Source: a virus. From it: DNA of 23,900 nucleotides. The notes below the pieces were generated by a model, which did no database searches, had not been told where the DNA came from, and saw nothing but the letters and a program-made list of their open reading frames with translations. The stretch is from the IMG/VR virus record IMGVR_UViG_3300048502_000040, positions 1 through 23,900 of that record; one strand, 5' to 3'. Position numbers and translations under genes: made by a program. How positions within the stretch are numbered: position 1 is the stretch's first letter; every line of letters begins with the position of its first letter. Shown here piece by piece: positions 1 through 20,102 of this stretch.

Positions 1-25
1 AAGCAGTGGTATCAACGCAGAGTAC
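1..25 (+). other. SMART/SMARTer template-switch adapter (library artefact)
   Basis: Exact AAGCAGTGGTATCAACGCAGAGTAC at the contig start. Confidence 0.97.
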
Positions 26-4263: not shown

Positions 4264-4560
4264 ATGGCTGACAATCTAAAGATAGGCAAAGTGGAGGTAG
4301 TTCAGGTCTTCAAGACCAAGGTGGTACCCCTCCCATCAGTGAGTGATCCTGCCGGGGTGAACCAAGTACCGCGAGAGGTCATTGCCTCAAAACTTCTAAT
4401 CATACCGGACGATCCAAACGACAACTGGTCGTTGCGCGGGGAACTAACCATTCCCGGCGCTTTGACATTTGGTGCTATCTATGATCTAATACTCGTAGAT
4501 CATGTTGAGCCGCCACCCGTGCCGGAAAACTTCCGCAAGTTTCAAGAACCAGAGTTATAG
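4264..4560 (+). CDS. hypothetical protein (C-terminal RKFQE motif)
   Basis: AAAGGA RBS; 98 aa. Confidence 0.75.
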   Translation: MADNLKIGKVEVVQVFKTKVVPLPSVSDPAGVNQVPREVIASKLLIIPDDPNDNWSLRGELTIPGALTFGAIYDLILVDHVEPPPVPENFRKFQEPEL

Positions 4561-4574
4561 ATCGGAGAGCCGTT

Positions 4575-5165
4575 GTGACCAACTTCTTTACAGCAGACGA
4601 ACACTACTTCCACGAGAATGCGAGAATGGGCTGGGGCAACGCAGCTAAGGCTCGTCCCTTCACGTCTGCGCTCGACATGAAGGAAGGTCTAATCGCCCGC
4701 CACAACGAAGTGGTGCGCCCCGGCGACCACACTCACCACGTCGGCGACATGTTCTGGCGCACATGCACCTACGAGGATGCTCTCAACATTATGAGCAGGC
4801 TGAACGGTAGCCACTCGTACGTCATGGGCAACCACGAAGAGGTCATGCTCAGTCACTACCATCTTCGTTCCGTGTTTACGACCGTGGAGGAGCGTTCCTT
4901 CATCAACCTGCCGGGAGGCCCGTCGAAGGGCATCGTCCTCGATCACTACTCAGGAAGAGTTTGGAGACAATCCGGCGCAGGCGCGTGGCAGCTTTACGGA
5001 CACAGCCACAATGAGCTTGAATCGCGTGAGGACTCGAAGAACCTCCTGTCGTGCGATGTCGGAGTTGACAGTTGGAACTGGTATCCTGTATCCTTATCTC
5101 AGATCGCGGAAGTCATGCGCGTGAAGAAGGAGAACAGGGATGGCCGGGCCGTGGACAGAGGATGA
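4575..5165 (+). CDS. calcineurin-like metallophosphoesterase
   Basis: DEH, GD, GNHE, HY, GHSH and DVGVD motifs. Confidence 0.9.
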   Translation: MTNFFTADEHYFHENARMGWGNAAKARPFTSALDMKEGLIARHNEVVRPGDHTHHVGDMFWRTCTYEDALNIMSRLNGSHSYVMGNHEEVMLSHYHLRSVFTTVEERSFINLPGGPSKGIVLDHYSGRVWRQSGAGAWQLYGHSHNELESREDSKNLLSCDVGVDSWNWYPVSLSQIAEVMRVKKENRDGRAVDRG

Positions 5166-6267
5166 GCAACTGGGGTTGAACCTCAAGAAGGAATACATCC
5201 TGAAGCACCACCCCAGCGCCCACGCGGAGTTCATGGCGGAGGCCGGACGCTGGGTGGTCTTCGGTCGTGGAAAGTACAACGAGTCCCTGACCATAGGAAC
5301 TGGGGGCAGTGAGCGGGCCGCGTGGCAAAGCGCGTACAAATACACACAAGAAAGTGTCTCTCCTATTCCGGTGTCCACCCCAAAAATTTCTACAACATCT
5401 TCCAAGGGATCGCTGGAGTACCCTGCGGTGTGCGACCCGTACACAGGCTTGTGGAAGCCACTCTCGACCGATACGATGCCTGTGGGATGGCACCCGGAGC
5501 GCGAGTACACCACTGGTGAAGTCGTCTACATGAAGGACGGAGGCACTAAGGTCTATGCTAATGGCAAGCTGCACGATTTAGTCACTCACAAGCTCATCAC
5601 GGGCGAGACCATGCAGATGAACCCCATCACGAACGAGGTATTTCACTCGAACGTGTTGTCTCAAGGTGCGAAGACGGCGGCTGGGATCGCGGCGCTGAAG
5701 CAGCAGGCCGAGTCCGGCGCACTAGATAAACTGAAGTCCGGCATAGCAAAGAAACTGAACATGCACGTCGGCCAGTACATCCCGGTCGATACTGAAGATG
5801 ACCTTCAGGTGCTAACCAAGTACAAGGTCAAGTTCACACCGACCTTGAAGCCGATGATACTCCCAAAGAAGCCTGCGCTCGAAGAGGACGATGAGGAGTT
5901 CGCCCCAGTGCCGACGAAGAAGGAAAAACCGTTCTCCTCTATCAACACGAAGGCCGACCTGACCAATCAGGCGCTCGTCCAGCACATCGGTGTAGCATCG
6001 AACTGCAACGTGATTATCCAGCAGGCGTTCTCTTCCAAGGGTGCGTTTGGTCGCAAGGTGCGGCTGGTCTGCAAGCAGTGCAACAAGGACAAGGTGTACT
6101 TCGACGAGGCGATGTTCCACATGACTCCCGAAGGCATCGTCAACGAGTTGAAGGAATTTTGCTTCGCTCATCGGCACGACGGCAGCAAGGTCGAGATGCC
6201 GTGGAAGACGGTAGCTATACCTGACCCGAAGAAGTTGGAGAACTACCGACGCTTCAGGGAGGAATAA
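5140..6267 (+). CDS. mosaic hypothetical protein (C-terminal RRFREE)
   Basis: 375 aa. WHPEREYTTGEVV resembles a CBM5/12-type motif, and there is a CxxC...H domain near the C-terminus. Confidence 0.75.
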   Translation: MAGPWTEDEQLGLNLKKEYILKHHPSAHAEFMAEAGRWVVFGRGKYNESLTIGTGGSERAAWQSAYKYTQESVSPIPVSTPKISTTSSKGSLEYPAVCDPYTGLWKPLSTDTMPVGWHPEREYTTGEVVYMKDGGTKVYANGKLHDLVTHKLITGETMQMNPITNEVFHSNVLSQGAKTAAGIAALKQQAESGALDKLKSGIAKKLNMHVGQYIPVDTEDDLQVLTKYKVKFTPTLKPMILPKKPALEEDDEEFAPVPTKKEKPFSSINTKADLTNQALVQHIGVASNCNVIIQQAFSSKGAFGRKVRLVCKQCNKDKVYFDEAMFHMTPEGIVNELKEFCFAHRHDGSKVEMPWKTVAIPDPKKLENYRRFREE

Positions 6268-6539
6268 TGCCTTCAAAGCTGATGAGAGAGGCGATATGGG
6301 ACACACCCAGTCATAGGCGCATAAGCAAGATGCCACCTAAAAGAAAGTACGATCTACACCCGTTTTTCATAACGGACTTTCCGACGCGAATGCCTCACGG
6401 CTACATTGAGGAGCAGAGCACAGCAGGAATACCGGGCCTGAGTGGGATTGTAAGCCCTCCTCCACAGCCCGTCGTCAAAGCTAAGGCAGCGGTGAAGTTC
6501 CCGCTCACAACCGCAGACCGACGTTTCCGGTCAGAGTAG
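6267..6539 (+). CDS. hypothetical protein (C-terminal RRFRSE)
   Basis: TAATG coupling and a GGAGG RBS. Confidence 0.7.
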   Translation: MPSKLMREAIWDTPSHRRISKMPPKRKYDLHPFFITDFPTRMPHGYIEEQSTAGIPGLSGIVSPPPQPVVKAKAAVKFPLTTADRRFRSE

Positions 6540-6546
6540 GGGATGT

Positions 6547-6972
6547 TTGAGAAGTGCTTTACACAGATGTGTCGTCATACTCTCGCTACTACTCGCGCCG
6601 CTGGCGCTGCACGGGAGAGTTGCATCTGAGCACATCGCACTCACCCCGGTAAAGACTGGCCCTCCTCCCGAGGGCTGTCTCGCTCCTCTTGTGCGGGCCA
6701 GCTTCTACTCGACGAACTTCGAGGGCAAAGAGATGGCAAACGGGGGTACGTTCCATGAGGCGGTGCCCACAGCGGCAAGCCGGACGTACCCCCTCGGTGC
6801 GGTGCTGGATGTGACCGCGCAAAGTACGCGTAAAACTGTGCGGCTGCGGGTGACTGACACCGGGCCGTGGAACCACAAGTTCTGCCTCGATCTTTCGACG
6901 GCAGCTTTCAAGGGTCTGGGCCTCGACGAAAAGCGCGGTTGGGACTGGGTGTCGATTACAAGGATCAGGTAA
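6547..6972 (+). CDS. RlpA-like double-psi beta-barrel lytic transglycosylase with a signal peptide
   Basis: ASFY...GKEMANG..F....TAASRTYPLG...VTDTGP...LDLS.AAF, plus a hydrophobic N-terminus. Confidence 0.85.
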   Translation: MRSALHRCVVILSLLLAPLALHGRVASEHIALTPVKTGPPPEGCLAPLVRASFYSTNFEGKEMANGGTFHEAVPTAASRTYPLGAVLDVTAQSTRKTVRLRVTDTGPWNHKFCLDLSTAAFKGLGLDEKRGWDWVSITRIR

Positions 6973-7694
6973 TGGCGTACAGCTTGACGAACCAGCTTGA
7001 TAAAGTCGAGCACGATATGCTGAAGGCTGGCTACCCAGCCTCCGCCGTCTACCTAGCCATGCACAATGAGTGCAAGAAGTTCATGGAGCAGGAACGGGCA
7101 GAGCATTACTTCAAGCTCTACCAGCAGCACTATCAGAACGAGAAGGAAGCCAAGCTGAAGAACGACCAGCAGCAGTTGAGCTACAACGCTGCCTCGGTGG
7201 TGAACCACTTCCCGCCAGAGACGGCCAATCAGAACGCCATCAAGTTTGTGGAGTCGCAGCCAAACTACTACGCCTGCGTCGAGAACCACAAGCAGATGAC
7301 TGACCACATGATCGCCAATGGGATCGCACCGACCGTGGACGGCTTCCGCAAAGCCTACTACACACTGCGGGCACTGGGTGTCTTGAAGAGCCATCCTAAC
7401 CACGAGCCTGAAGCCTATTACGGCAAAGGGCTGGCGGCATCTCTGGGCGGCGCAATGGCGGTGGGCGCACAGCAGGCTATCGGCAAGGTGCCACACATGG
7501 ACACCGCCCTAGCGCAGCAGCAAGCTCAGGCCCACATGCTTGCGCAGATGGCGCAGGAAGAAAAGATCAAGCGCGACATCATCCGGGCCGCGATGGAAAT
7601 TGATACATGGGTGAACAAAGACAGCATGAAGGAAAAGATCAAGAGCGCAGTTGTCACAGAACACGTTGGCAGGAAGTTCAGAGAGGACATCTAG
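6972..7694 (+). CDS. hypothetical protein (C-terminal GRKFREDI)
   Basis: TAATG-coupled start MAYSLTNQ... Confidence 0.75.
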   Translation: MAYSLTNQLDKVEHDMLKAGYPASAVYLAMHNECKKFMEQERAEHYFKLYQQHYQNEKEAKLKNDQQQLSYNAASVVNHFPPETANQNAIKFVESQPNYYACVENHKQMTDHMIANGIAPTVDGFRKAYYTLRALGVLKSHPNHEPEAYYGKGLAASLGGAMAVGAQQAIGKVPHMDTALAQQQAQAHMLAQMAQEEKIKRDIIRAAMEIDTWVNKDSMKEKIKSAVVTEHVGRKFREDI

Positions 7695-7744
7695 TGAAAC
7701 GCATCCGAGCATTCATGCACCGCCACGCGGCGCTGATCCTGTGG

Positions 7745-7773
7745 TTGACAGCCGTGATCCATTGAGGTACAAT
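7745..7773 (+). promoter_or_regulatory. sigma70-type promoter, probably giving a leaderless mRNA
   Basis: TTGACA-N17-TACAAT; the ATG at 7780 is 7 nt downstream. Confidence 0.75.
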
Positions 7774-7779
7774 GATCCT

Positions 7780-7974
7780 ATGAGACACGAATGCGAACTC
7801 GACGAGATGGGACGCTGCCAGCCGTGCATCACCCGGTTCAACGACCTCATGCGCGAGGTTCACACTCACGAGTGTCATCGCGGCGACACGCGGGCGGTGC
7901 GCACCCCGCTGGGGTTCCGGTGTCTTAGGTTACTCCGCAAATTTTTTACAAAGTTCAGGAAGAGATCAAAATGA
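7780..7974 (+). CDS. small Cys/His-containing basic protein
   Basis: MRHECELDEMGRCQPC...; the start coincides with the predicted +1. Confidence 0.6.
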   Translation: MRHECELDEMGRCQPCITRFNDLMREVHTHECHRGDTRAVRTPLGFRCLRLLRKFFTKFRKRSK

Positions 7975-8828
7975 GAGTCATCATGAAGAGCGTCACCGTA
8001 ATTGGTCAGGAAGCCTTGAAGCTCGTCAAGGCGGGATACGACAGCGGTATGTCGTGGTCTGCCGTGGCAAAGCAGATGGGCATCCGCTTCCTCTTGGAGC
8101 AGCAGCGGGCCGAGCTATACGCCAGCGCCAACGCCGCGCTCTACGACAAGCTCACCTCCCTGCAATCTGACCCGTCCGACTCTGCGGCTGCCCGCAGCTT
8201 CCGCCTCACGCAGGATCAGCTTCGCCCCGGCGACCCCCGCCGCGACTTCCTCGGTGGCGTTCCCCACACCATCAACTCCAGCGCCGCCCGTACCGCCGCA
8301 ACCGCCCTCACCACCGCTGGCGAATCCGTCTACCAGAGGACATACAAGCGCCGGGTGGATCACACCAGCCTGACGCCGTGGACGTTCCGCATGTCCGCTG
8401 TCGAGGTAGAGTGGAGTCTGCAAAACTCTTTGGGGATAACTGTCGGGAGAGCCAACGACCCTGAGACAGCCCAATCCATCTGCGACCTCGTGAACGCCGT
8501 CCGCGACGCCGCCTACGACCTAGCGCAGACTGGGCGCACCAGCAGCGAGACGCCATCCGTATCAAATACGCCCAAGGAGGCCAAGAATCGCTTCACCGCG
8601 ACAGCAGAGAACCTCGTGGACCGGACTCCCTTCGCTGACTTCCCAACCCAGTCCCCCAAAGACTCCCTGAGCTTCCTACCCTTCCGCACCGGGCCGACAA
8701 CGACCGCCGTCTTCGACGGGCATCCCGGCCACCGCGCCGCGCTGGATCAAGCTGGCCGCCGCGACGACACCACTGAGCACCGCCTGCGCCAGCTTGACGG
8801 GATCGAGCATTCAAAATTCCAAATTTGA
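7971..8828 (+). CDS. hypothetical protein
   Basis: 285 aa ORF, ATGA-coupled, AGGA RBS. Confidence 0.7.
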   Translation: MRVIMKSVTVIGQEALKLVKAGYDSGMSWSAVAKQMGIRFLLEQQRAELYASANAALYDKLTSLQSDPSDSAAARSFRLTQDQLRPGDPRRDFLGGVPHTINSSAARTAATALTTAGESVYQRTYKRRVDHTSLTPWTFRMSAVEVEWSLQNSLGITVGRANDPETAQSICDLVNAVRDAAYDLAQTGRTSSETPSVSNTPKEAKNRFTATAENLVDRTPFADFPTQSPKDSLSFLPFRTGPTTTAVFDGHPGHRAALDQAGRRDDTTEHRLRQLDGIEHSKFQI

Positions 8829-9128
8829 ATTTACCCCATCCAAGGGTCATTCGCCTCTAATCGGTGCTTTCTTACCGCTTAGGGGCGTTTTTGTGCGTAA
8901 CAGGTGGAATTGTACCGTTTATCTACGAGCGATGACGATCCTGCACCAGCAGGCCAGAATTACCCCCAAAATGTTTGGCAGGTCGCGTGTCAAGTCTCCT
9001 TGTCAGGCTACCCCCTACGCCGCGTAACGCACCCCCACATATGGTACCTATCCTGATCGACCCCCTATTAGCAGGGCTAGGGTAGTGACCCCCTATGGCC
9101 GATGTGTTGGCCGATATGGTACCTTTAG

Positions 9129-9141
9129 CAACTAATTGATT
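9129..9141 (-). promoter_or_regulatory. IHF-consensus site
   Basis: Reverse complement AATCAATTAGTTG matches WATCAANNNNTTR. Confidence 0.5.
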
Positions 9142-9388
9142 AGTGGACGGATCAGGGAGGTCACCACCCTATCTCAACTAGGCGGGGCAGGGCGCTTCGG
9201 CCACACCAGCTTGAGCTTTGCCTGACCAACCGGGGCGGACTCCCGGCACGCGCCTTGGCGGAGGGTTGGTTAGGGACGTTATCTCCTTTGCTATCATACT
9301 CTTACGAGACATCTGACACTAACTCACTCATGCAATCGCACACGTCACGCGCACGGGCACACACGTACAGGCGGTACAGTTTAGCGTG

Positions 9389-9401
9389 TAACTGATTGAT
9401 A
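9389..9401 (-). promoter_or_regulatory. IHF-consensus site
   Basis: Reverse complement TATCAATCAGTTA matches WATCAANNNNTTR. Confidence 0.5.
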
Positions 9402-9559
9402 ATGAAAAAGTTAGCATAAGACGTACACATTATGGCGTATTGTGTACAGACGTGCGCGGCGGGCGTTCGGTTGCGTTCGGCGGCGGGCCGCGTGTGTGCG
9501 GTTGTGAATAGCCTAGCCTAACCGTTCACACTGGCGTGTATACCGTACGCGGTACGCTC

Positions 9560-10270
9560 ACAAGGCGGGCGGGCACAGGGCAAAGGATCACACACAAGGC
9601 GGGCCGCGTGTGAGCGCCACACAGGGCCGCACGGCGGCGGGCACGGTTGCACGTCACAAGGCGGGCCGCGTGTGCATGGCGTGTGCATGGCGTGTGCATG
9701 GCGTTAGACGTGTGAGCGTATGAAATACCGTTCGCGTTTACTGTGTGCCCTGTGTATGTGTCATAGGGTATCGGGCACAGGTAGACGTGTGGACGGTTGC
9801 ACGTTCGGGCGGTTAGTTATGTGCAAACAGTTTGGAGCATACGCGGCACAGGTTAGCGTGTGGCGTTCGGCGGTATGTGTACGACACACAGGCGGGCACA
9901 ATCACGCGTAGACGGGCACAGGCGGGCCGCGTAGACGTTCGGCGGGCGTTCGCACGGTACGCGATACAGGCGGCGGCCCTGTGTGCCATGCGCGGCGGCG
10001 GCCCGCGTTCGCGGTTGTGATCATGTGCGCATACGTGAGACAACCGAACGGGCCGCACACGCGGCGGATTGATACAGGCGGGCGTGTGAGCGTACGCGAT
10101 ACCGTTATACGGGCACAGACGGGCACGGGCGGCCCTGTGTGCGTTCTATCCTGTGTGAACGTGTGCCCTGTGCTGATACGTTCGGGCGGCGGCATGGCGG
10201 CCTGTTTATGTGCGAATAGTTTGGAGCATAAAAAGGCGGCCCGCCTGTGTAAGCTCGGGCCGCGTGTGAT
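9560..10270. repeat. low-complexity region of short dispersed repeats
   Basis: ACAAGGCGGGCCGCGTGTG x2, GCATGGCGT(GT) x3 in tandem, and TTATGTGCRAAYAGTTTGGAGCATA x2 (9817-9841, 10206-10230). Confidence 0.7.
10230..10263 (-). terminator. intrinsic terminator for the 10287-10454 gene
   Basis: The minus strand reads GCGGCCCG-loop-CGGGCCGC-CTTTTT. Confidence 0.65.
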
Positions 10271-10286
10271 CCTGTGCGAACGGGCG

Positions 10287-10454
10287 TTAGATTTTTACGC
10301 CCGCCGCCCGTGCCGCTGCATAGTTCGCGTGTGAGTGTGCATCAAAATAGACTTCAAACTCACCCGTGCCCGCGTCTATCAAAGGTTCGGCGGTTGCGGT
10401 TGTGTGATCCTGTGTGGCGGCGATTGCGGCGGTACGTGTGCGTAAAGTTGCCAT
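10287..10454 (-). CDS. 55 aa hypothetical protein (not in the ORF track)
   Basis: MATLRTRTAAIAATQDHTTATAEPLIDAGTGEFEVYFDAHSHANYAAARAAGVKI*, preceded by CGGGCAAAGGA and followed by a terminator. Confidence 0.65.
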   Translation of the reverse strand: MATLRTRTAAIAATQDHTTATAEPLIDAGTGEFEVYFDAHSHANYAAARAAGVKI

Positions 10455-10508
10455 TGTCTTTTATCCTTTGCCCGTGTTATCCTTTTTCTAGTTCGGAGGT
10501 ATCACACA

Positions 10509-10607
10509 ATGCGTTATGCTTACTTGCTTCTACCAGTCGCCGCCGTTCTATATGCCGCGTTCGCATTGCGTACGGCATTAGACGCGGTACTAACTTCTAT
10601 TCGCTAA
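10509..10607 (+). CDS. 32 aa single-TM peptide (not in the ORF track)
   Basis: GGAGGT RBS; MRYAYLLLPVAAVLYAAFALRTALDAVLTSIR*. Confidence 0.65.
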   Translation: MRYAYLLLPVAAVLYAAFALRTALDAVLTSIR

Positions 10608-10656
10608 CGCCACACAACCGCCGCCCGCCGCGTTAGTGCGGGCAAAGGATCACATC

Positions 10657-11070
10657 ATGAATAAGACAACCGCCGCCGCCCGCATCGCCGCCCGTACCAT
10701 TCACCCGTTAGATTCTCATGTGCCCGCCGAACGTGCGGCCCGCATCGCACAGGATCACATCTTGAGTGTGCCCGCATTGCGTGAGATAACGCCCGCCGAT
10801 ATTCTCGCCGCACACAAGGCGGCGGCCCGTGCGGTTGTGCTAGATTCGCCGATACCATCGCCCGCCGAATGTGACGCACAGATGCGCGAATTACACGCGG
10901 GCGATAGTGCCGCGTGTGCCGCGTGTGCAACCGCCGCCCAAACTATCGCGGCACTCACTGCGATATTGACACAGGCGGGCGGCGGCACATGCGCGGATTG
11001 TGGCAACTTGGCGCATGAGTTAGCGGCGGGCATATGTGTACACTGTGCATTCGCCGCGCATATGGCGTAG
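10657..11070 (+). CDS. Ala-rich hypothetical protein with CxxC pairs
   Basis: AAAGGA RBS in the conserved leader; CAAC, CADC and CVHC. Confidence 0.65.
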   Translation: MNKTTAAARIAARTIHPLDSHVPAERAARIAQDHILSVPALREITPADILAAHKAAARAVVLDSPIPSPAECDAQMRELHAGDSAACAACATAAQTIAALTAILTQAGGGTCADCGNLAHELAAGICVHCAFAAHMA

Positions 11071-11166
11071 ACGCACACACGCCCGCCTGTGCTATACTTT
11101 GCACGTACCACTAACCGCAACCGCAACCGCCGCCCGCCGCGATAGACGGGCAAAGGACAATATAAA

Positions 11167-11799
11167 ATGGCAATCTTAGACGCAACTTTCAATCTTGCGG
11201 TACGTTCGCTAACCGTTCGCGCACTGTTCACGGGCACACAGTTTGCAGATTATGCCGCCATGAAAAAAGACTTTCAATCACGCGGCATTCTTACGGTAAA
11301 TGTGAACTTCTCAGACGGTACGATATTCGGCGGCGCGGTTGATAATTGGCACTTCCGCGCATGGCATGATTCGGCGCATCTGGCGGTAGATTCTGACTTC
11401 ACACAGGCGGGCGAACGGGCGGCGAGTGTCTACCAGATTGCGCAAGTATTCGCCGCGTACGGTATCAACCCGGTAACTGGTAGATGGGCGGCGCTGATTG
11501 ATTGTGAAGTGAATGCGCAAGCTGAACACTTCTACAGGTTCGGCGAGTTTGTTCAGGATCAATCAGCATTCACACTCGCACAGTTGCGGGATGTGTACAA
11601 AGTAGAATTACCGGATGCGTTCGCGGGCACGGATACCGCCGCCGCCTATTGGAATGCGGCACTCGCCGCCATGCCGCCCGCGCAACTTGACGTATACGCC
11701 CGCCCGCTTGTGCCGCCCGCGTACCTGCTAGACTATGCGGGCATCTTTGTTGATTGCATGGCGAACGTGCGGCGAGACATTCGCAACCGCCGCCGCTAG
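11167..11799 (+). CDS. hypothetical phage protein with an FRAWHDxxH motif
   Basis: Conserved leader and RBS; HDSAH...F..AGE may be a metal-binding motif. Confidence 0.75.
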   Translation: MAILDATFNLAVRSLTVRALFTGTQFADYAAMKKDFQSRGILTVNVNFSDGTIFGGAVDNWHFRAWHDSAHLAVDSDFTQAGERAASVYQIAQVFAAYGINPVTGRWAALIDCEVNAQAEHFYRFGEFVQDQSAFTLAQLRDVYKVELPDAFAGTDTAAAYWNAALAAMPPAQLDVYARPLVPPAYLLDYAGIFVDCMANVRRDIRNRRR

Positions 11800-11891
11800 T
11801 CTAACCGCCGCCCGTGCTCACATAGACGGGCGGTTGTCTTTCAGGATCACAACCGCCGCCCGCCGCGTTAGGACGGGCACAGGGTAAAGCA

Positions 11892-12467
11892 ATGGCATAC
11901 GATTACACACAAGACATAAAGGCATGGCGGCGGGCACTGTGCCGCGTATACGCCCGCGCAACCGCCGAACAGATACAAGCGGGCGGCGAGTGGTACGCGA
12001 ACGCGGCGGCGGTACTAGCGGCATTCTTAGACGTGTGGACGGGCACACAGGCGGCGGCGGTATGCGCGGTATTATCGCCGCGTGTGGCGTGGAAGGAAAA
12101 CATCACGGGCGTTCGCAAAATGCACAAGGCGGCCCGCGAACGTCTACGCGTGTGCCCCACGGTTGCGGGCACTCGCCGCAATGTAGAACGCGCGTGGACG
12201 ATTGCACAGGCGGGCGATACTAGCCTAGTGAGCGGGCCGAAAGTGTCTAGCTTTTATGCGAACCTGTGCGGCGATTACAACCGCGTCACAATAGACATAT
12301 GGGCGGCGCGGGCGGCGGGCGTGAGTGATTCCGTTATGTCGCACTTGGATAGGCGGCGGTATACCGCACTGGTAACCGCGTATCGTTTGGCGGCGATGGA
12401 CTGCGGGCACACGCCCGCGCAATTTCAGGCGATTGTGTGGACTGTTACACGGGGGAATCATGAATAA
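11892..12467 (+). CDS. HhH-GPD/EndoIII-like DNA glycosylase-related phage protein
   Basis: WY..A, AVLSPRVAW..N, SGPKV..F..NL, VTIDIW and QAIVW resemble a helix-hairpin-helix with catalytic Lys/Asp. Confidence 0.55.
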   Translation: MAYDYTQDIKAWRRALCRVYARATAEQIQAGGEWYANAAAVLAAFLDVWTGTQAAAVCAVLSPRVAWKENITGVRKMHKAARERLRVCPTVAGTRRNVERAWTIAQAGDTSLVSGPKVSSFYANLCGDYNRVTIDIWAARAAGVSDSVMSHLDRRRYTALVTAYRLAAMDCGHTPAQFQAIVWTVTRGNHE

Positions 12468-12663
12468 CACGGCGGCATTATTGGACGCGGCACAGGCGGG
12501 CATAGACGCGGCCCGCGTAGACGTTCGGCGGGCACGGGCGGGCGTGGACGCGGCGGCGGCATTCTTACGCGGTTGCACATGTAAAGACGGGCGGTTGCCG
12601 TGCTCTAAGTGTATCGCCGCCGCAACTAAACGCTACACACGCGAACGGGGGAACCTGCGATGA
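12460..12663 (+). CDS. small hypothetical protein (CxC..CxxC)
   Basis: Overlapping operon arrangement, GGGGG RBS. Confidence 0.55.
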   Translation: MNNTAALLDAAQAGIDAARVDVRRARAGVDAAAAFLRGCTCKDGRLPCSKCIAAATKRYTRERGNLR

Positions 12664-12947
12664 TGAAAGGGAACATATTCCGCATACTAACCGAACGGCG
12701 AAACGTGCGCGGCATCCGCCGCATTCTCGCCGCGCATGGATTGGATTACACTTTGTTTCATGCGTTCGGATGTTTCGGCGGTACGCCCGAATCGTCTACC
12801 ATCATAGAATTGTGCCTTGTGACTCGGGCACAGGCGGTTGCGGTTGCGGTTGCAATCGGGCGGGCGAATAATCAGCAATGCGTGATGCTGCAAACGGTAT
12901 CAGGTTCGGCGGTATTGCTAGACACAGGCGGCACAGGTAAACACTAG
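12660..12947 (+). CDS. hypothetical protein
   Basis: ATGA-coupled ORF. Confidence 0.65.
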   Translation: MMKGNIFRILTERRNVRGIRRILAAHGLDYTLFHAFGCFGGTPESSTIIELCLVTRAQAVAVAVAIGRANNQQCVMLQTVSGSAVLLDTGGTGKH

Positions 12948-12991
12948 CAGACGCACACAGGGCCGCCAGCGGCGGCAGAATAGGGCACAGG

Positions 12992-13354
12992 ATGAGCGAA
13001 CCAGCGATGAGTCTACCAGCGGTTAGGATCACAGGCGACACGGGCCGCCCGCAACAGTATGCGGGTGAGCATGGATGCCGCACGTACATCAGCGAACAGG
13101 GCCGCGTGTGTATGGCGGCGGAAACCGTGATTCATGATGGGCGGATGTACTGCGATGCACATGCGCCAGCGGCGACAGGGCGGGCGGCGGGCCGCATCCC
13201 CAGCGGTGTACAGGCGGAGTTAGACGCGGCGGCGGTACGCACAGGCGACACGGCGGCGCTGATCCTTGCGCGGCACAGGTTGGGCATCATATTCAGTTTA
13301 TCAGCGGTTGAACTTGAGCGGGTCACAGCAGAGCTTTACCAGCGGACAGTTTGA
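12992..13354 (+). CDS. hypothetical protein
   Basis: 120 aa ORF with C...C...YCxxH; the start may be 13007. Confidence 0.6.
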   Translation: MSEPAMSLPAVRITGDTGRPQQYAGEHGCRTYISEQGRVCMAAETVIHDGRMYCDAHAPAATGRAAGRIPSGVQAELDAAAVRTGDTAALILARHRLGIIFSLSAVELERVTAELYQRTV

Positions 13355-13379
13355 CACACAACTAGGCGGCATGTATACT
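13351..13379 (+). promoter_or_regulatory. sigma70-type promoter
   Basis: TTGACA-N17-TATACT. Confidence 0.8.
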
Positions 13380-13410
13380 GTTACCAGCGAACTACTCGGA
13401 GGATACACAT

Positions 13411-13920
13411 ATGGCAGTCAAGAAAATGCTCGAACCGTGCGGCAACGACTTCACACCCTCAGCGAAAAATAAACAGGTGTGCGACAATTGTGGATTCATC
13501 AAGCGGAAGCATATCTGCAATTGCGGGTGTGGTCTCGGTCTCGGGATTGCACACCTCCCAGCGGTACACGCGGCGGCAACCGCCCCGAGCTTTACGGCAG
13601 AATCAGCGGCGGCATTCGCGGCCCGTATTCACCCGCGCAATTTCAATTTCAGCCCCAAACTCGCCGCCATAGTCGGCGCTATCATCGGGCACGATTACGG
13701 TGTGCGCGACCGCAAGGGCGGCCACCTTACAGGTCTCAGCATCACCAGCGATGGGTTTGTAATCGCGTCGTCTACTGCCAGCGATGGCGGCGGCGCATTG
13801 CTGTGCGATGCCGAAGAGCTAGACGCGAACCTCAGCGCATGGCTGCCCGAACTTGCGGCGAAGGATCAAACCGAGTTCAACCGCCTGCGGGCCGAACGTG
13901 TACGCGATTGGAGGAGCTAA
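13411..13920 (+). CDS. hypothetical protein with a Cys-rich N-terminus
   Basis: GGAGG RBS. Confidence 0.75.
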   Translation: MAVKKMLEPCGNDFTPSAKNKQVCDNCGFIKRKHICNCGCGLGLGIAHLPAVHAAATAPSFTAESAAAFAARIHPRNFNFSPKLAAIVGAIIGHDYGVRDRKGGHLTGLSITSDGFVIASSTASDGGGALLCDAEELDANLSAWLPELAAKDQTEFNRLRAERVRDWRS

Positions 13921-13921
13921 C

Positions 13922-14254
13922 TTGAACCTGACACAGGCACAGAATTACGCGGGACAGGTAGCGAATAAAACCGGGTCGAGTGTGCTGGTATACCGTACAC
14001 TAGATGGGGATCACGGTGTGGCGTTCACACTGCCCGGATCAACTAACGTGCGGGTGGGTGAACGCATCCGCCCGTCTCAGCCCAAACCAGCGGAAGCAGC
14101 GAAGGCACGGCTGGAATATCTGCGCGGAGAGTTGCGGGCGGAGTGCCTGAGCTATGCCGAAGTTGTCGAGCTTCAGACCCTCGTGGACTTTATCGAACCG
14201 GGGGACGTGGAATTGCTCGAAGCAGCGGGCGTACCGGAAGGGGCGGCACACTAA
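13922..14254 (+). CDS. hypothetical protein
   Basis: GGAGGAG RBS and TTG start; ends RLEYLRGELRAECLSY..LLEAAGVPE. Confidence 0.7.
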   Translation: MNLTQAQNYAGQVANKTGSSVLVYRTLDGDHGVAFTLPGSTNVRVGERIRPSQPKPAEAAKARLEYLRGELRAECLSYAEVVELQTLVDFIEPGDVELLEAAGVPEGAAH

Positions 14255-14457
14255 TGGCGCAATCGTTCACCAGTCCCATCGTCGCGGCGGCACACCAGCG
14301 GGAGCAGACGGCAGAATTTGCCCGCCTGCTAACCGCTGCCCGCGAGGTCTTGCAGTTCGAGCACATCCAGCGCATCAGCGATTCCATGGGCATCTCATGC
14401 CCGGCAGTCGAGACCCTGTTCGGTCAGGCGCTACACTATCGGGAAGGAGGGAACTAG
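14254..14457 (+). CDS. hypothetical protein
   Basis: TAATG-coupled start MAQSFTSP... Confidence 0.6.
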   Translation: MAQSFTSPIVAAAHQREQTAEFARLLTAAREVLQFEHIQRISDSMGISCPAVETLFGQALHYREGGN

Positions 14458-14521
14458 GAATGACAGCAGGACAGCCAGCGGGCAGCGCAAGCGTATCGCG
14501 CAGAACATGAGGAGGAATAAA

Positions 14522-14659
14522 GTGCGCAACTTTATCGCCGTTGTATTCGCAGCCGTGCTCATCGGTAGTTTGTTATGGTTGTTTCCTACTGCTTACGGAC
14601 TACAGCAGACTCCCACAGGAGCAGCAATTTGTAAGGCTCTCGGCGGTTGCTCAAATTAG
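14522..14659 (+). CDS. 45 aa membrane or secreted peptide (not in the ORF track)
   Basis: GAGGAGG RBS; MRNFIAVVFAAVLIGSLLWLFPTAYGLQQTPTGAAICKALGGCSN*. Confidence 0.65.
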   Translation: MRNFIAVVFAAVLIGSLLWLFPTAYGLQQTPTGAAICKALGGCSN

Positions 14660-14730
14660 CGCTTGACACCCACCCCTACCCGCGTGGTAGGCTTGCAGTA
14701 ATTCAGCGGTCACCCCGCTAGGAGCGACAC

Positions 14731-16281
14731 ATGCAGTTTGTACAGCAGTTCAAAGCAGCCCGGCGCGTCAGCACTCCTTTGGTCGCAGTGCGCACCTTCG
14801 ACGCCAAGTCCACCCTCGACCAGATTCGCAAACTGTTGGGCGATACCCTGAAGGACACCCCCATGATCCTGTGGGACATCATGAACGGTGTGCGGGCACT
14901 CACTGAGAAGGGCAAGGATGAGCTTGCCAACATCCTGCAAAAAGCAGACCTCATGCAAGAAGCGACCATCGGCGACGACGGTCTCAGCGTCACCCTCAAG
15001 ATGGCAGAGTTCGCCCGCGAGGATGCCATCATTTTCATCAGCAATTCCCATCTCTTCATGGGCAAAGCAGCGAACATCACACAAGGCATATGGAACCTGC
15101 GCGACAGCTTCAAGGCACAGGGTAACATGCTCGTGCTTCTGTGCCACCCCGGTGCGACCCTGCCCGTGGAATTGTGCAACGACGTGCTGATGTTGGATGA
15201 ACCCCTGCCAACCGTCGCAGAGCTTACCGCGACCGTGAAAGACACGTTCAAATTCGCTAAGGCCGATGCCCCCAGCGATGAGGTAATTGAGAAGGCGATG
15301 GACGCCCTTGTCGGTCTCCCAGCTTTCCCAGCGGAGCAGACGACAGCGATGTGCCTGAGCGTGGACGCCAAGTCGCGCAAAGGTGCCCTCGACATGCCCG
15401 AGCTATGGGGGCGGAAGCGTAGCATCATCAGCCAAACCCCCGGCCTGAGTGTGTGGGAGGGTAAGGAGCGGCTGGAAGACATCGGCGGAGTGGAAGTAGT
15501 CAAAGAGTTCTACCGCCGCGTGATCGAAGGCCGGGACGCCCCCAAAGTCATCATCTTCATGGATGAAATTGAGAAGGCATTCGCGGGCACGGGCACGGAT
15601 ATGTCGGGCGTGAAGACCGAGCTAACGGGCAGCATGTTGTCGTGGATGCAGGACACGGGCATCGTCGGCAGCATCAGCATCGGTGTCCCCGGTGTGTCGA
15701 AGTCACAGCTTGCGAAGGCCATCGGCGGGACGTACGGAAAGCCCGTCATCAAGTTCGACCTTGCCGCCATGCAGTCGGGCATCATCGGCAGCAGCGGCGC
15801 GAACCTCCGCGCGGCACAGAAGACCGTGGACGCCATCAAAGGTGACGGCAAGGTCTTTGCCATCGCTACCTGCAACAGTATCAACAGCCTGCCCCCCGAG
15901 CTTCAGGGAAGGTTCAACCTCGGGACGTTTTTCTTCGACGTGCCCACCCCCGAAGAGGCAGCGGTCATATGGAACATCTACCGCAAGCGGTACCAGTTCG
16001 CCGACAGCGACCCGACCCCGGCACATGTAGGCTGGACAGGCCGCGAGATCGAAGAGTGCGCACGTAAGGCGTGGAGCTTGCGGTTGACGCTGGAAGAGGC
16101 GGCACAGTACATCGTACCCGTCATCAAGTCCCGCGCCGACAGCATCGCCCATCTGCGGCAGTCGTGCAGCGGCAAGTACCTCAGCGCATCGCACCCCGGT
16201 GTGTATGAGTGGAGCGGCGAGACGGTACAGGCATCACTCCCCGTCTTCAGCGGTGACAGCGGGCGCAAGGTGCGGGCATAA
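14731..16281 (+). CDS. Ycf46-like AAA+ ATPase with swapped Walker B/Walker A segments
   Basis: Degenerate N-terminal AAA domain (LPVEL..LDEPLP), then DIGG, IIFMDEIEKAF, GVPGVSKS and FAIATCNSINSLPPELQGRF...FFFDVP. Confidence 0.9.
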   Translation: MQFVQQFKAARRVSTPLVAVRTFDAKSTLDQIRKLLGDTLKDTPMILWDIMNGVRALTEKGKDELANILQKADLMQEATIGDDGLSVTLKMAEFAREDAIIFISNSHLFMGKAANITQGIWNLRDSFKAQGNMLVLLCHPGATLPVELCNDVLMLDEPLPTVAELTATVKDTFKFAKADAPSDEVIEKAMDALVGLPAFPAEQTTAMCLSVDAKSRKGALDMPELWGRKRSIISQTPGLSVWEGKERLEDIGGVEVVKEFYRRVIEGRDAPKVIIFMDEIEKAFAGTGTDMSGVKTELTGSMLSWMQDTGIVGSISIGVPGVSKSQLAKAIGGTYGKPVIKFDLAAMQSGIIGSSGANLRAAQKTVDAIKGDGKVFAIATCNSINSLPPELQGRFNLGTFFFDVPTPEEAAVIWNIYRKRYQFADSDPTPAHVGWTGREIEECARKAWSLRLTLEEAAQYIVPVIKSRADSIAHLRQSCSGKYLSASHPGVYEWSGETVQASLPVFSGDSGRKVRA

Positions 16282-16286
16282 GCCTA

Positions 16287-16736
16287 ATGGATAACTTCTT
16301 CTCATTCATCGACCAGCATGGCCCGGTACCAGCACATAAACCGGAGCTAGGGCCGTGCTGGTTATGGATGGGACAGCACCACAAGCAAGGCTACGGCATG
16401 TTCAGCAAGCGCATCGAAGGGAGGAAAAACAGCAAGACATACCTAGCACATCGAGTAGCCTATGAACGGCTAATCGGGCCAATCCCAGAGGGCTTAGTTC
16501 TGGATCACCTTTGCCGCAATACAGGTTGTGCCAACCCGTACCATACAGAACCAGTACCACAGATTGTAAACATTTTGAGGGGTGAGGGCTACGCAGCTAA
16601 GTGTGCTAGAAAAACTCATTGCAAACGTGGGCATTCTCTGATAGTATGTCCTTGGAATAATGTAAAGCGTCGGTATTGTCCAGAGTGTAGGCGGATAAAC
16701 AGGCGCAACAAATACGCAACACGAAAGGTAGGGTAA
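16287..16736 (+). CDS. HNH homing endonuclease
   Basis: CWLW.G...GYG.F...AHRVAYE..IGPIPEGLVLDHLCRNTGCANPYH..KTHCKRGH. Confidence 0.9.
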   Translation: MDNFFSFIDQHGPVPAHKPELGPCWLWMGQHHKQGYGMFSKRIEGRKNSKTYLAHRVAYERLIGPIPEGLVLDHLCRNTGCANPYHTEPVPQIVNILRGEGYAAKCARKTHCKRGHSLIVCPWNNVKRRYCPECRRINRRNKYATRKVG

Positions 16737-16740
16737 CTAT

Positions 16741-17199
16741 ATCAGCGAGTATTCAGAAGCAACCACCGAGTTCAAAGATGCTGACCTCCTCATTGAGGCG
16801 CTGGCAGCGGTCGGTTACAATCAGATCGAGAACTGCATCGGCAAGCCTATGCCCCTCGTCGGGTTCCAAGGCGACTACCGTACGCAGGACGGCGAAGGCC
16901 ACACGAAGGACGCAGACAAGGCGCTGAAGGCGGACATAATCATCCGGCGTAAGTATGTCGGCGGCGCGTCCAACGACATTGGCTTTGTCAAGGGGAGCGA
17001 CGGCAAGTTCAAGGCGGTCATCAGCGATTACGACAGCAGCAGGCACAACGCCGCATGGCTGGCGAAGTTGAAGGGTGAGTACGCGGAGATCAACGTCGTC
17101 AAGACCATGAAGCGCATGGGCGTGAAGATCACCGGGCGCACCACCCGCAAGAACGCACAGGGCCAAGAAGAGGTCGTCTACAATTACGCCAAGGCGTAA
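16741..17199 (+). CDS. DUF1257/Ycf35-like protein, probable ATC start
   Basis: (I)SEYSEATTEFKDADLLIEAL...GFQGD.R...ADIIIRRKYVGGASNDIGF...ISDYD. An upstream in-frame stop lies at 16729. Confidence 0.8.
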   Translation: MSEYSEATTEFKDADLLIEALAAVGYNQIENCIGKPMPLVGFQGDYRTQDGEGHTKDADKALKADIIIRRKYVGGASNDIGFVKGSDGKFKAVISDYDSSRHNAAWLAKLKGEYAEINVVKTMKRMGVKITGRTTRKNAQGQEEVVYNYAKA

Positions 17200-17241
17200 G
17201 AAAACTGTAGCAAAAATCTGACAGGGAAGGAGGACACCAGT

Positions 17242-17436
17242 ATGGCGAAGCAGGGCACAGTGGTAATAAATAAGGTTACCGGGGAATTTAGCATAGACCT
17301 AACAGGCTACAAGGGTAAAGGCTGTAGTGTAGACGCAGCGCAGTTTACCCGTGGTGGTCGGGTTACTAAAGATGTAAAAAAGAAAGAATGGAACTTGACC
17401 CAATCGGCAGCACAGCAGCAGGAGCAAAAACAGTGA
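17242..17436 (+). CDS. DUF2997-like small protein
   Basis: VINKVTGEFSIDLTGYKGKGC...K.EW with a Gln-rich tail; the position after DUF1257 fits. Confidence 0.75.
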   Translation: MAKQGTVVINKVTGEFSIDLTGYKGKGCSVDAAQFTRGGRVTKDVKKKEWNLTQSAAQQQEQKQ

Positions 17437-17918
17437 AGACGATTCAACTAACTAAGGGTAAGGTGGCGCAGGTAGACGACGGTGACTACCTTACCCTTAG
17501 TGCCCACAAGTGGTGCGTACTAAAGACAAAGTATGGCCTTTGGTACGCTAAGCGGCGCAAGGGCAAACTTACAGTTTATATGCACTGTGAAATATTGGGG
17601 AAAAAGGGCGTAGACCATGAGGACGGAAACGGTCTAAACAATCAGCGATACAACCTGAGAGAAGCAAACTCAGAGCAAAATAACAGGAACCGCAACAAGT
17701 TTTTTACTAAGAAGCCTGCCACTAGCCTTTATAAAGGGGTTTGCAAAAAAGGTAGCAAATGGGTAGTTCAAATATCCGTTGACAAGAAACCCTTTCATGT
17801 GGGATACTTCTCCACAGAGATAGAAGCAGCAAAGGCATACGACGCAGCGGCAATCGAGCACTACGGCAAGTTTGCTAAACTGAATTTTCCAGAGGAGAAG
17901 ATATGCGAGAAGGTGTAA
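17433..17918 (+). CDS. HNH-AP2 homing endonuclease
   Basis: IQLTKGK.A.VD..D, VDHEDGNGLNNQRYNLR, S.YKGV...W..QI...GYF..E.EAA.AYD.AA...G.FA.LNF. Confidence 0.9.
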   Translation: MKTIQLTKGKVAQVDDGDYLTLSAHKWCVLKTKYGLWYAKRRKGKLTVYMHCEILGKKGVDHEDGNGLNNQRYNLREANSEQNNRNRNKFFTKKPATSLYKGVCKKGSKWVVQISVDKKPFHVGYFSTEIEAAKAYDAAAIEHYGKFAKLNFPEEKICEKV

Positions 17919-18226
17919 TAAAAATAAAAGCTGACGGAACGGTTCGCTTTATAAATACCCCAGAGTTAGCAACACTAGCACCTAACGCAACCGTGCGTCG
18001 AGCTTCTCAGGTAGAGCCTGATGTTGCAGTCTATCGCTGGGTGTTTCACAGCCTGCGGTGTCTGTTCGGTGAACGAGGACTGGTGGCCGACTGGACACGG
18101 GACTGGCGCATTCTTTGGCGCGTAAACTTGGCCCCTGTAGGCGGCCCTGTACTGCCCCAGAGATGGTGGGTTCGTTGTGATGCTATCATCGCTGAAGTTG
18201 ACTGGTTGAATGAAAACTTCATCTAA
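17903..18226 (+). CDS. hypothetical protein of the AAA/DUF1257 module
   Basis: DGTVRFI..RRASQVEP..W.V.L.PVGGP..AEVDWL; GAGGAG RBS. Confidence 0.7.
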   Translation: MREGVIKIKADGTVRFINTPELATLAPNATVRRASQVEPDVAVYRWVFHSLRCLFGERGLVADWTRDWRILWRVNLAPVGGPVLPQRWWVRCDAIIAEVDWLNENFI

Positions 18227-18236
18227 AAAATAGTTG

Positions 18237-18265
18237 TTGACAGCCTTCCCCGCATTTAGTAAAAT
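18237..18265 (+). promoter_or_regulatory. sigma70-type promoter
   Basis: TTGACA-N17-TAAAAT. Confidence 0.75.
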
Positions 18266-18295
18266 TATCTCAGATCGAAAAAGGAGCAACACATT

Positions 18296-19189
18296 ATGCC
18301 AGTCGAAATCAAAGACGCATCAGAGTTGGTAGACAAAACAGTCTTCCTCAAAGTGAGCTTTGGCATCCTCGGAAACTCGAAGAAGGTGTCCGGCTCTGAA
18401 GTGCTCAACACGGATGCAGACGTGGATCGCGTCAAGGTGTCCAAGACCCTCCTCGAAGCAACTGAGTACGAGGCCATCAAGAAGGCCGACACCAAGATGC
18501 GCACGTACCTCTACAACACTTGCCTGCCGTTCGACATGGGCATCATGCTTCTGCCGTGGGGATTGGTGGAGACGGTCAACGCCCGGCTCGAAGAGTACGC
18601 ACAGGAGCGCGGCGCACTGGTCAACGAGTTCATCAAGGTCTACCCCAAGATGTGCGAGGATGCCCGGCAGCACTTAGGCAGCCTGTACAACGAGGCCGAC
18701 TACCCGTCCGTCGATGTCATCAAGGCCAAATTCAGCTTCCAGTTCCGGCTCCTCAGCCTGAGCGTACCGGGCAAGCTGAAGTCCATCAGCGCCGCGATGT
18801 TCAAGCAGGAGACCGAGAAGGCCGCCGCACAGATTCAGTCGGCCCTCGACGACATTACCCTCCTCATGCGCCAAGAACTTCTGGACATGGTTACCAACCT
18901 CGAAGACCGTCTCACGCCGGGCGACGAAGGCAAGCCCAAGAAGTTCAAGGAGACCACGGTCACCAACCTCCAGTCGTTCCTCGACGGTTTCGACATCCGC
19001 AACGTCGCGGGAGACGAGGAGCTTTCCAAGCTCGTCGCCAAAGCGAAGGAGATCGTCGGCGGCACCAGCGCCCCCACCCTCCGCAGCAGCGATGAGTTCC
19101 GCGAGAAGGTACGCGCGGGCATGGCATCGGTGAAGGAACAACTCGCCGGGCTGGTCGAAGAGAAGGGGCGCAAGTTCCGCGAGGACTAG
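18296..19189 (+). CDS. DUF3150-like protein (C-terminal GRKFRED)
   Basis: SK.LL, LPF..G..LLP, F...YP..ARQHLGSLYNEADYPS, D.EL..LV..A; located in the AAA module. Confidence 0.7.
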   Translation: MPVEIKDASELVDKTVFLKVSFGILGNSKKVSGSEVLNTDADVDRVKVSKTLLEATEYEAIKKADTKMRTYLYNTCLPFDMGIMLLPWGLVETVNARLEEYAQERGALVNEFIKVYPKMCEDARQHLGSLYNEADYPSVDVIKAKFSFQFRLLSLSVPGKLKSISAAMFKQETEKAAAQIQSALDDITLLMRQELLDMVTNLEDRLTPGDEGKPKKFKETTVTNLQSFLDGFDIRNVAGDEELSKLVAKAKEIVGGTSAPTLRSSDEFREKVRAGMASVKEQLAGLVEEKGRKFRED

Positions 19190-19304: not shown

Positions 19305-20102
19305 ATGACAACTAAGGTTCCGCAGAATGTACTGGACTCGGTTTGGGATTCTACCTCAGCCGATTGGCACCGACATGATAACGGTAAGGGCTGGGTGTAC
19401 AAAACTGCCAACGTTGATCCAACAGTTTACCTTCACCCAACCTCAATTGTCTACGGCAATGCGCAGGTCTACGGCAATGCGCAGGTCTTCGGCACTGCGC
19501 AGGTCTACGGCGATGCGTGGGTCTTCGGCGATGCGCGGGTCTTCGGCGATGCGCGGGTCTACGGCGATGCGCAGGTCTTCGGCGATGCGCGGGTCTTCGG
19601 CGATGCGCAGGTCTACGGCACTGCGCAGGTCTCCGGCGATGCGCGGGTCTTCGGCGATGCGTGGGTCTACGGCACTGCGCAGGTCTCCGGCGATGCGCGG
19701 GTCTACGGCAATGCGCAGGTCTTCGGCGATGCGCGGGTCTACGGCACTGCGCAGGTCTACGGCACTGCGCAGGTCTCCGGCACTGCGCAGGTCTACGGCG
19801 ATGCGTGGGTCTTCGGCGATGCGCGGGTCTTCGGCACTGCGCAGGTCTCCGGCGATGCGTGGGTCTTTTCCCCTCTGTACATACAGGGAACTCGTCACGC
19901 GGTAACGCTTTGCAGCCACAAGCAAATAGCTATTGGGTGCCACGTCCACGACATTACGGAGTGGCAAAAAAAGTACCGTGCCATCGGTAAGATGGAGGGC
20001 TATACTCCAGCGCAGATCAAGGAGTATGGGGCGTACATCGTACTGCTGGCAGCGGCAGCCAAAGTTGCAATCAAGACTGCCAAAACAAAGGGGGCGAAGT
20101 GA
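19305..20102 (+). CDS. hexapeptide-repeat (left-handed beta-helix) phage protein
   Basis: 23 V[YFS]G[NDT]A[QRW] repeats, then an IAIGC..H...W tail; AAGGAG RBS. Confidence 0.85.
   Translation: MTTKVPQNVLDSVWDSTSADWHRHDNGKGWVYKTANVDPTVYLHPTSIVYGNAQVYGNAQVFGTAQVYGDAWVFGDARVFGDARVYGDAQVFGDARVFGDAQVYGTAQVSGDARVFGDAWVYGTAQVSGDARVYGNAQVFGDARVYGTAQVYGTAQVSGTAQVYGDAWVFGDARVFGTAQVSGDAWVFSPLYIQGTRHAVTLCSHKQIAIGCHVHDITEWQKKYRAIGKMEGYTPAQIKEYGAYIVLLAAAAKVAIKTAKTKGAK
19449..19862 (+). repeat. 23 x 18-nt tandem repeat
   Basis: Unit GTC THC GGC RMT GCG YRG. Confidence 0.95.

Follow-up and report, generated by a model that had tools for sequence, protein, structure and literature searches.

Why would proteins of one phage that have nothing else in common end in nearly the same few residues? 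The question arises from a 23,900-nucleotide stretch of viral DNA (hereafter, the window), which spans bases 1-23,900 of the 98,567-bp IMG/VR virus record IMGVR_UViG_3300048502_000040. A sequence-only reading of the window had listed five unrelated proteins with the C-terminal motif R[KR]F[RQ][ES], one of them DUF3150-like, together with an AAA+ ATPase ending in a variant of it, and had proposed a short linear motif recruiting them to a single hub, such as the AAA/DUF1257/DUF2997 machine, a host complex or the capsid. The six C-termini are as claimed (stops at 4560, 6267, 6539, 7694, 16281, and 19189): an Arg-Lys-Phe-Arg-type C-terminal peptide is common to six unrelated proteins of a soil phage, and probably also to its terminase. 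With a probability that we put at roughly 0.6, this tail would be a docking peptide of a four-gene module (ATPase, DUF1257, DUF2997, and DUF3150), read by one type of binding site on the trio of ATPase, DUF1257, and DUF2997. We will refer to tagged proteins other than the ATPase and the DUF3150 protein as “passengers.”

A Common Tail in the Window Phage

Genes were called with our own caller, which recovered 143 of the 147 annotated genes of Tunturiibacter phage Tunturi_3, and gave a window-phage proteome of 138 proteins (28,230 amino acids). The strict motif R[KR]F[RQ][ES], a post hoc pattern read off the data, occurs five times in this proteome, each time 6-8 residues before the stop. With a looser pattern, one that takes in the ATPase, six tails are found, whereas 5000 position-wise tail shuffles averaged 0.5 and never exceeded 5. 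Furthermore, a tail profile trained solely on the ATPase and DUF3150 tails of other genomes places five of the six tagged proteins at ranks 1-5 of the proteome, and three non-module tails score at least 8 where 0.29 would be expected (P 0.003). The 98-residue protein scores low on this profile (2.3), yet its RKFQE is kept in three orthologues (L248, L249, and L250). After removal of the tails, the six proteins show no mutual similarity at E ≤ 10, in agreement with the earlier statement that nothing else relates them. Broadly, the tail has the form G-R-x-(F/M/L/I/V)-R with acidic residues after it, R[KR]F[RQ][ES] being its local spelling, and its position is flexible, given that the orthologues of the 98-residue protein and many DUF3150 homologues run on past the tag. 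Two other possibilities were rejected: that the window genome also uses the tag at N-termini, and that the tag is appended by transfer-messenger RNA, the tails being genomically encoded.

The tail is conserved in orthologues of all six proteins. A weak homologue of the 98-residue protein in L003 (E 0.012) is likewise tagged, as are the L250 orthologue of the 90-residue protein, six of six close homologues of the 375-residue protein, and a 52-residue remnant of the 240-residue protein in L248. Distant homologues of the CxxC...HxH domain of the 375-residue protein, which appears zinc-binding-like, were found in nine loci and are all tagged, though the search profile excluded the tail; an Atlas search with this domain yielded no lead. 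On a wider scale, 113 of 120 ATPase homologues carry the tail, and Arg292 plus a hydrophobic residue at 294 are present in 149 of 152 module-linked DUF3150 homologues (R292 is invariant in the homologue alignment), which bears out the proposed tie to the AAA/DUF1257/DUF2997 module. Passengers scoring above the profile threshold number 43 in a set of 16 clade genomes, all whole or nearly so, against 3.5 expected, and tail density per 1000 positions is 2.56 within eight residues of the end and 0.06 internally (~40x). The two tests that the sequence-only reading had set beforehand, C-terminal enrichment over internal positions and conservation in orthologues, therefore both came out in its favor.

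A likeness of this kind might also be a by-product at the DNA level, through copied 3' gene ends, overlap with the next ribosome-binding site, or chance: the GAG/GAA-rich codons of R-E-E or R-E-D can make Shine-Dalgarno-like words, and a few pairs have most codons in common (L158, 6/8; L003, 5/5). However, codon identity among the six window tails is what usage predicts (23/54 vs. 22.4 expected), and that between DUF3150 and passenger tags is close to it (109/239 vs. 97.9 expected, z 1.6); tagged genes lie no nearer to the next start (gap ≤12 nt in 31/62, vs. 56%), the downstream DNA is unrelated, and distant orthologues retain the tail. Codon identity near the usage expectation, together with ordinary gene spacing, argues against recent copying and ribosome-binding-site overlap; since codon sharing does not exceed what usage would give, it is the peptide that is under selection, as had been suggested. 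Shine-Dalgarno overlap and DNA copying are largely refuted by the codon, spacing, orthologue, and enrichment results, and a DNA-level origin is thus very improbable.

The Tail Belongs to a Ycf46-Type Module

DUF3150 genes are found beside two AAA+ systems, MoxR/VWA and Ycf46/DUF1257/DUF2997 (L482, L484, L485, L486, and L487). Where the DUF3150 gene is flanked by genes for a MoxR-type ATPase and a VWA protein, the tail is missing in five of five cases, whereas a Manganitrophus plasmid copy accompanied by AAA/DUF1257/DUF2997 has the DUF3150 tail and a matching 847-residue passenger. The tail therefore belongs to the Ycf46-type module, and not to DUF3150 as such. DUF1257 and DUF2997 themselves are almost never tagged (1/159 and 3/139, respectively; 0/49 for the family of a 107-residue module protein), and this, together with the tailless DUF3150 beside MoxR/VWA, points to the AAA/DUF1257/DUF2997 trio as the reader. 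In this sense, the original motif reading is narrowed to a native tail of two module proteins, with genome-specific spellings, carried by DUF3150 only when paired with this module. In the NorQ/NorD system, the VWA partner attaches to the AAA ring and probably holds the target through its metal ion-dependent adhesion site (PMC9976466). By analogy, DUF1257/DUF2997 plus the tail may take the role of VWA, a swap that would suggest two interchangeable routes for bringing DUF3150 to an AAA+ motor.

Passengers and Their Spellings

Most passengers are singletons or belong to small families (70-375 residues), and thus the set turns over fast; many are small and without known family. Passenger linkers (n = 44) are enriched in Pro (2.2x), Glu (2.0x), Val (1.8x), and Lys (1.5x), so that the Pro/Lys-rich linker noticed earlier holds on average for passengers, but not for the ATPase and the DUF3150 protein.

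Judged from their sequences, the passenger set changes between related phages, each with its own tail spelling. Among 64 viral loci, the spelling of the resident DUF3150 is matched by 38 neighbors, vs. 0.7 internal windows and 6.6 ± 3.0 in a permuted-owner control (none of 5000 permutations reaches 38), counts that are inflated by the relatedness among loci. The matches span distinct types (RKF, RAI, RVF, RLI), and within a viral locus the ATPase tail is also closer to the DUF3150 tail than in permuted pairs (11.7 vs. 6.8). Tunturi_3 gp131 and one protein of the G058 region bear tags in their own spelling as well. A covariation analysis of tail positions against the columns of the module proteins, over 129 loci with an effective number of 53, gave hits roughly proportional to protein length, that is, noise.

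The dialects are also where a host receptor has to be considered. In this alternative, a host hub (the N-domain of a chaperone or protease, or a membrane or DNA-bound protein) would be bound by the tail, module and passengers would reach the same site, and spelling would follow host lineage. The RKF spelling of the DUF3150 tail, mostly common to Acidobacteriota islands and the phage clade, fits it, as does the fact that the receptor of the tail remains a candidate only. On the other hand, DUF3150 lacks the tail when partnered by MoxR/VWA; bacterial module neighbors are not enriched (one spelling match in 1258 genes of 55 island loci; 9 tails vs. 6.5 expected); and spellings differ within one phage clade, with the passengers following. 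We regard a host hub as unlikely.

The Module and How the Tail May Work

The ATPase (about 500 residues) comprises a degenerate D1 without Walker A and one active D2, and is modeled with a p97/Cdc48/NVL/Rix7-like D1-D2 fold lacking the N domain (10-15% identity). In D2 (window 15541-15870, residues 271-381), the Walker B block precedes Walker A, an order seen in every homologue that could be scored (208 of 220); the window ATPase belongs to a permuted subfamily, without the canonical Walker A-then-B order. Both module tails are disordered in the models (ATPase residues 499-514 and DUF3150 residues 290-297; predicted local distance difference test <50). An HNH endonuclease gene lies between the ATPase and DUF1257 genes (window 16287-16743), and a second HNH gene at 17433-17918.

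The DUF1257 frame opens at ATC where relatives have ATG (e.g., L248), and this ATC may be a non-canonical start, a mutation or a sequencing error. The acidic and aromatic residues conserved in DUF1257 (D79, F82, D98, W106, and Y114) could form a pocket for an Arg plus a hydrophobic residue; no solved relative of this protein was found by sequence (best E 0.08). The DUF2997-like protein has an invariant Cys28 in G-x-G-C, and itself gives no Pfam hit, although its syntenic homologue has Pfam DUF2997. No direct Pfam hit was obtained for the window DUF3150 protein either; homologues at 30-60% identity have PF11348, annotated DUF3150 proteins match it over 84-96% of the length, and a fold search gave generic helical bundles only (best Z 9.0). 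Tunturi_3 gp96 (L005, PP885686.1 67395-68354), annotated as an HNH endonuclease, is actually a DUF3150 homologue (39% identity). The ATPase, DUF1257, DUF2997, and DUF3150 genes nearly always co-occur, several apparent absences being missed or divergent genes. The 107-residue gene is absent from 53 of 53 scored bacterial island loci, and many modules have a radical-SAM gene in its place. Window genes and their tags are collected in Table 1.

Table 1. Tagged and untagged genes of the window, with window positions
Gene product	Position	Strand	Tag or basis of assignment
98-residue protein, family-less, tagged passenger	4264..4560	+	RKFQE at 4534-4548
375-residue protein, variable N-terminal part and C-terminal CxxC...HxH domain, tagged	5140..6267	+	RRFRE at 6247-6261
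90-residue Pro-rich protein, tagged passenger	6267..6539	+	RRFRS at 6519-6533
240-residue tagged passenger	6972..7694	+	RKFRE at 7671-7685
Ycf46-like type II AAA+ ATPase, flexible tail	14731..16281	+	GRKVRA at 16261-16278
DUF1257 (Ycf35-like), 152 residues, untagged, candidate receptor	16741..17199	+	DUF1257 Pfam E 1.9e-8
DUF2997-like 64-residue protein, untagged, candidate receptor subunit	17242..17436	+	Homology to syntenic DUF2997 copies
107-residue optional module protein, untagged	17903..18226	+	
DUF3150-family helical protein, flexible tail	18296..19189	+	GRKFRED at 19166-19186

The fold of the ATPase gives rise to a further rival, in which the pore of the ATPase would itself recognize the tail as a degron-like mark of substrates, the ATPase regulating itself through its own tail and the passengers being substrates, or decoys against the machine of a rival phage. 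Flexible C-terminal tails commonly serve as AAA+ initiation sites (ssrA, MuA), p97/Cdc48/NVL-like folds belong to the substrate-threading class, and many small, family-less passengers would suit such a role. Nonetheless, AAA+ pore loops are largely sequence-tolerant, while an invariant Arg, a hydrophobic residue, and the matching of dialects would rather fit a pocket of defined shape; besides, a free C-terminus is not needed. A pore tag seems to us rather doubtful, slightly more so than a host hub.

In the docking reading that we favor, the ATPase and DUF3150 tails (G-R-x-hydrophobic-R/K, often with acidic residues) would plug into the same type of site on the trio. The first candidate for the receptor would be DUF1257, possibly with DUF2997, as an adaptor in the place of VWA; the second would be the degenerate D1 ring, whose D1 domain has conserved acidic residues. 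The same peptide, evolved on other proteins, would widen the reach of the machine. Passengers would typically be small early proteins that combine a variable domain with a Pro/Glu/Val/Lys-rich linker and the tail, joined by the terminase in part of the clade, and they may act as clients, or as adaptors that bring in targets, for unfolding or disassembly driven by ATP. We infer binding, receptor, and client-versus-adaptor roles alike. A predicted complex of ATPase residues 1-498, DUF1257, DUF2997, and DUF3150 residues 264-297 scored 0.28 (mark 0.32) and is not used as evidence for or against docking.

More tentatively, the whole may amount to an addressing code private to the phage: it would encode its own AAA+ machine, the peptide preference of the receptor would drift from lineage to lineage, and the matching peptide would be re-evolved on fast-changing early proteins, even on the terminase, aiming the machine at new targets in the host, in rival phages or in the phage itself. 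Such a code would recall the substrate receptors that plug into a eukaryotic ubiquitin ligase.

Terminase and Virion Proteins

The terminase large subunit, encoded outside the window, contains NGRKFRDD at genome positions 84375-84398 on the minus strand (G000; L301:8375-8398). The Arg of this tag lies 21 residues before the end, in a variable linker, and its score is 21.0; among 357,572 internal positions, a single one attains 15. A tag-like word stands at this site in G003, G064, and Tunturi_3 gp1 and is missing from ten other relatives, and on the tree three changes are needed, at least two being forced by well-supported branches. The terminase is thus probably a seventh tagged protein; being one of known function, it would tie the machine to DNA packaging.

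The 240-residue passenger, for which the most likely start is 6972, correcting an earlier start, resembles over residues 74-138 an untagged protein encoded between the portal and major capsid genes (65-residue domain, 38% identity, E 2e-11). All 16 copies of this virion-region paralogue lack the tag, and therefore a capsid hub or a capsid-loading role is unlikely; tagged proteins also cluster in the non-structural region. Of the hubs first proposed, the module link stands, and the capsid is not favored. The tagged early protein might be a decoy or bait version of the head-assembly protein.

Points Against the Docking Interpretation

Several observations weigh against the docking reading. The module is present in G005, G058, and Tunturi_3, with zero passengers above the profile threshold. 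A module-free relative was sought, and all 10 near-complete relatives have the ATPase. In a 47%-complete contig (L122), both tails are present with DUF1257 and DUF2997 undetected, which would also fit a host hub. The MoxR/VWA controls are few (five), and four are from Burkholderiales. Owing to shared ancestry and a probably shared host lineage, dialect matching could track a host receptor. Finally, thresholds were chosen by the authors, and the R-x-hydrophobic core is short.

As to module-free candidates, G003 was rejected as a piece of a phage that has the module, its proteins being those of L001, and G048 as coming from the same sample as L248, probably a part without that region. In G057 (86% complete, ATPase not seen), no tail exceeds the threshold, and one tag-like ending is found on a CxxC-domain protein. 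Viral contigs scanned with one protein at a time, the ATPase and DUF3150, yielded nothing.

Relation to Known Systems and Significance

The closest known arrangement is the trio of Ycf46, Ycf35 (DUF1257), and DUF2997 that occurs in cyanobacteria (slr0374/slr0376 region of Synechocystis), in plastids, and on mobile elements, with the same three families in one operon; the module described here differs by the addition of DUF3150, the swapped Walker A/B order, and a tail common to many passengers. Also close are MoxR/VWA pairs (NorQ/NorD, CbbQ/CbbO; PMC9976466) and the MoxR-DUF3150-VWA operons of plasmids and cyanophage MinM2, in that DUF3150 can stand beside either type of machine; here, however, the ATPase is of the D1-D2 type, the module has no MoxR or VWA, and the tail appears where VWA is absent. 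In a literature screen based mainly on titles and abstracts, no paper was found that deals with the tail, its receptor or how the module works.

Judging by sequence and models, the tail would belong to the class of short linear docking motifs, as a conserved island in a disordered terminus that recurs in unrelated proteins. Docking tails of AAA+ machines include p97/Cdc48 cofactor motifs, the HbYX/GQYL tails of proteasome activators, the MIM tails of ESCRT-III, and SspB/MuA tails. The present tail would resemble them in its working, yet fails their defining features. The fold is like that of p97/Cdc48, but the model begins with the D1 alpha/beta domain, with no N domain such as binds the UBX, SHP, VIM, and VBM motifs in p97, D1 lacks Walker A where p97 has two canonical AAA domains, and the motif is another. 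The GQYL-like logic of one short motif on the ATPase and on unrelated partners is alike, whereas the penultimate aromatic residue, free carboxylate, and fixed place of HbYX/GQYL are not found here: the distance between motif and end varies from 5 to over 20 residues, without a Tyr rule or a known 20S partner. Vps4/CdvC MIT with ESCRT-III MIM and SspB/MuA with ClpX are similar in that a helical client with a C-terminal motif recruits an AAA+ machine; nevertheless, the window ATPase has no MIT or zinc-binding N domain, and is itself tagged, and the spellings of the tag are genome-specific.

The Ycf46, DUF1257, DUF2997, and DUF3150 genes have a wide distribution, from phages, islands, and plasmids to cyanobacteria and plastids. 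With the tail as a handle, likely clients can be listed from sequence, and many family-less phage proteins may be placed in one pathway; the function of the module also becomes testable with short peptides and with cultured phage Tunturi_3 on Tunturiibacter.

Host and Other Features of the Window

Tunturi_3, a 97.6-kb podovirus infecting Acidobacteriota (PMC11924767), is the only cultured phage matching the window ATPase (47% identity), and the best bacterial matches are islands within Acidobacteriota genomes. The window phage appears to be a relative of Tunturi_3, with Acidobacteriota as its likely host phylum.

Window positions 1-25, at the contig start, carry what we take to be SMART library adapter sequence, and positions ~1-900 repeat imperfectly at 96.3-97.8 kb; the left contig end is therefore partly an assembly artefact. 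Positions 8830-10280 hold ~1.4 kb without genes, followed by a region of shifted AT skew, and the two are possibly a genome end or an origin region. Finally, a 265-residue protein with a tandem six-residue repeat (phrog_5070) is encoded at 19305-20102.

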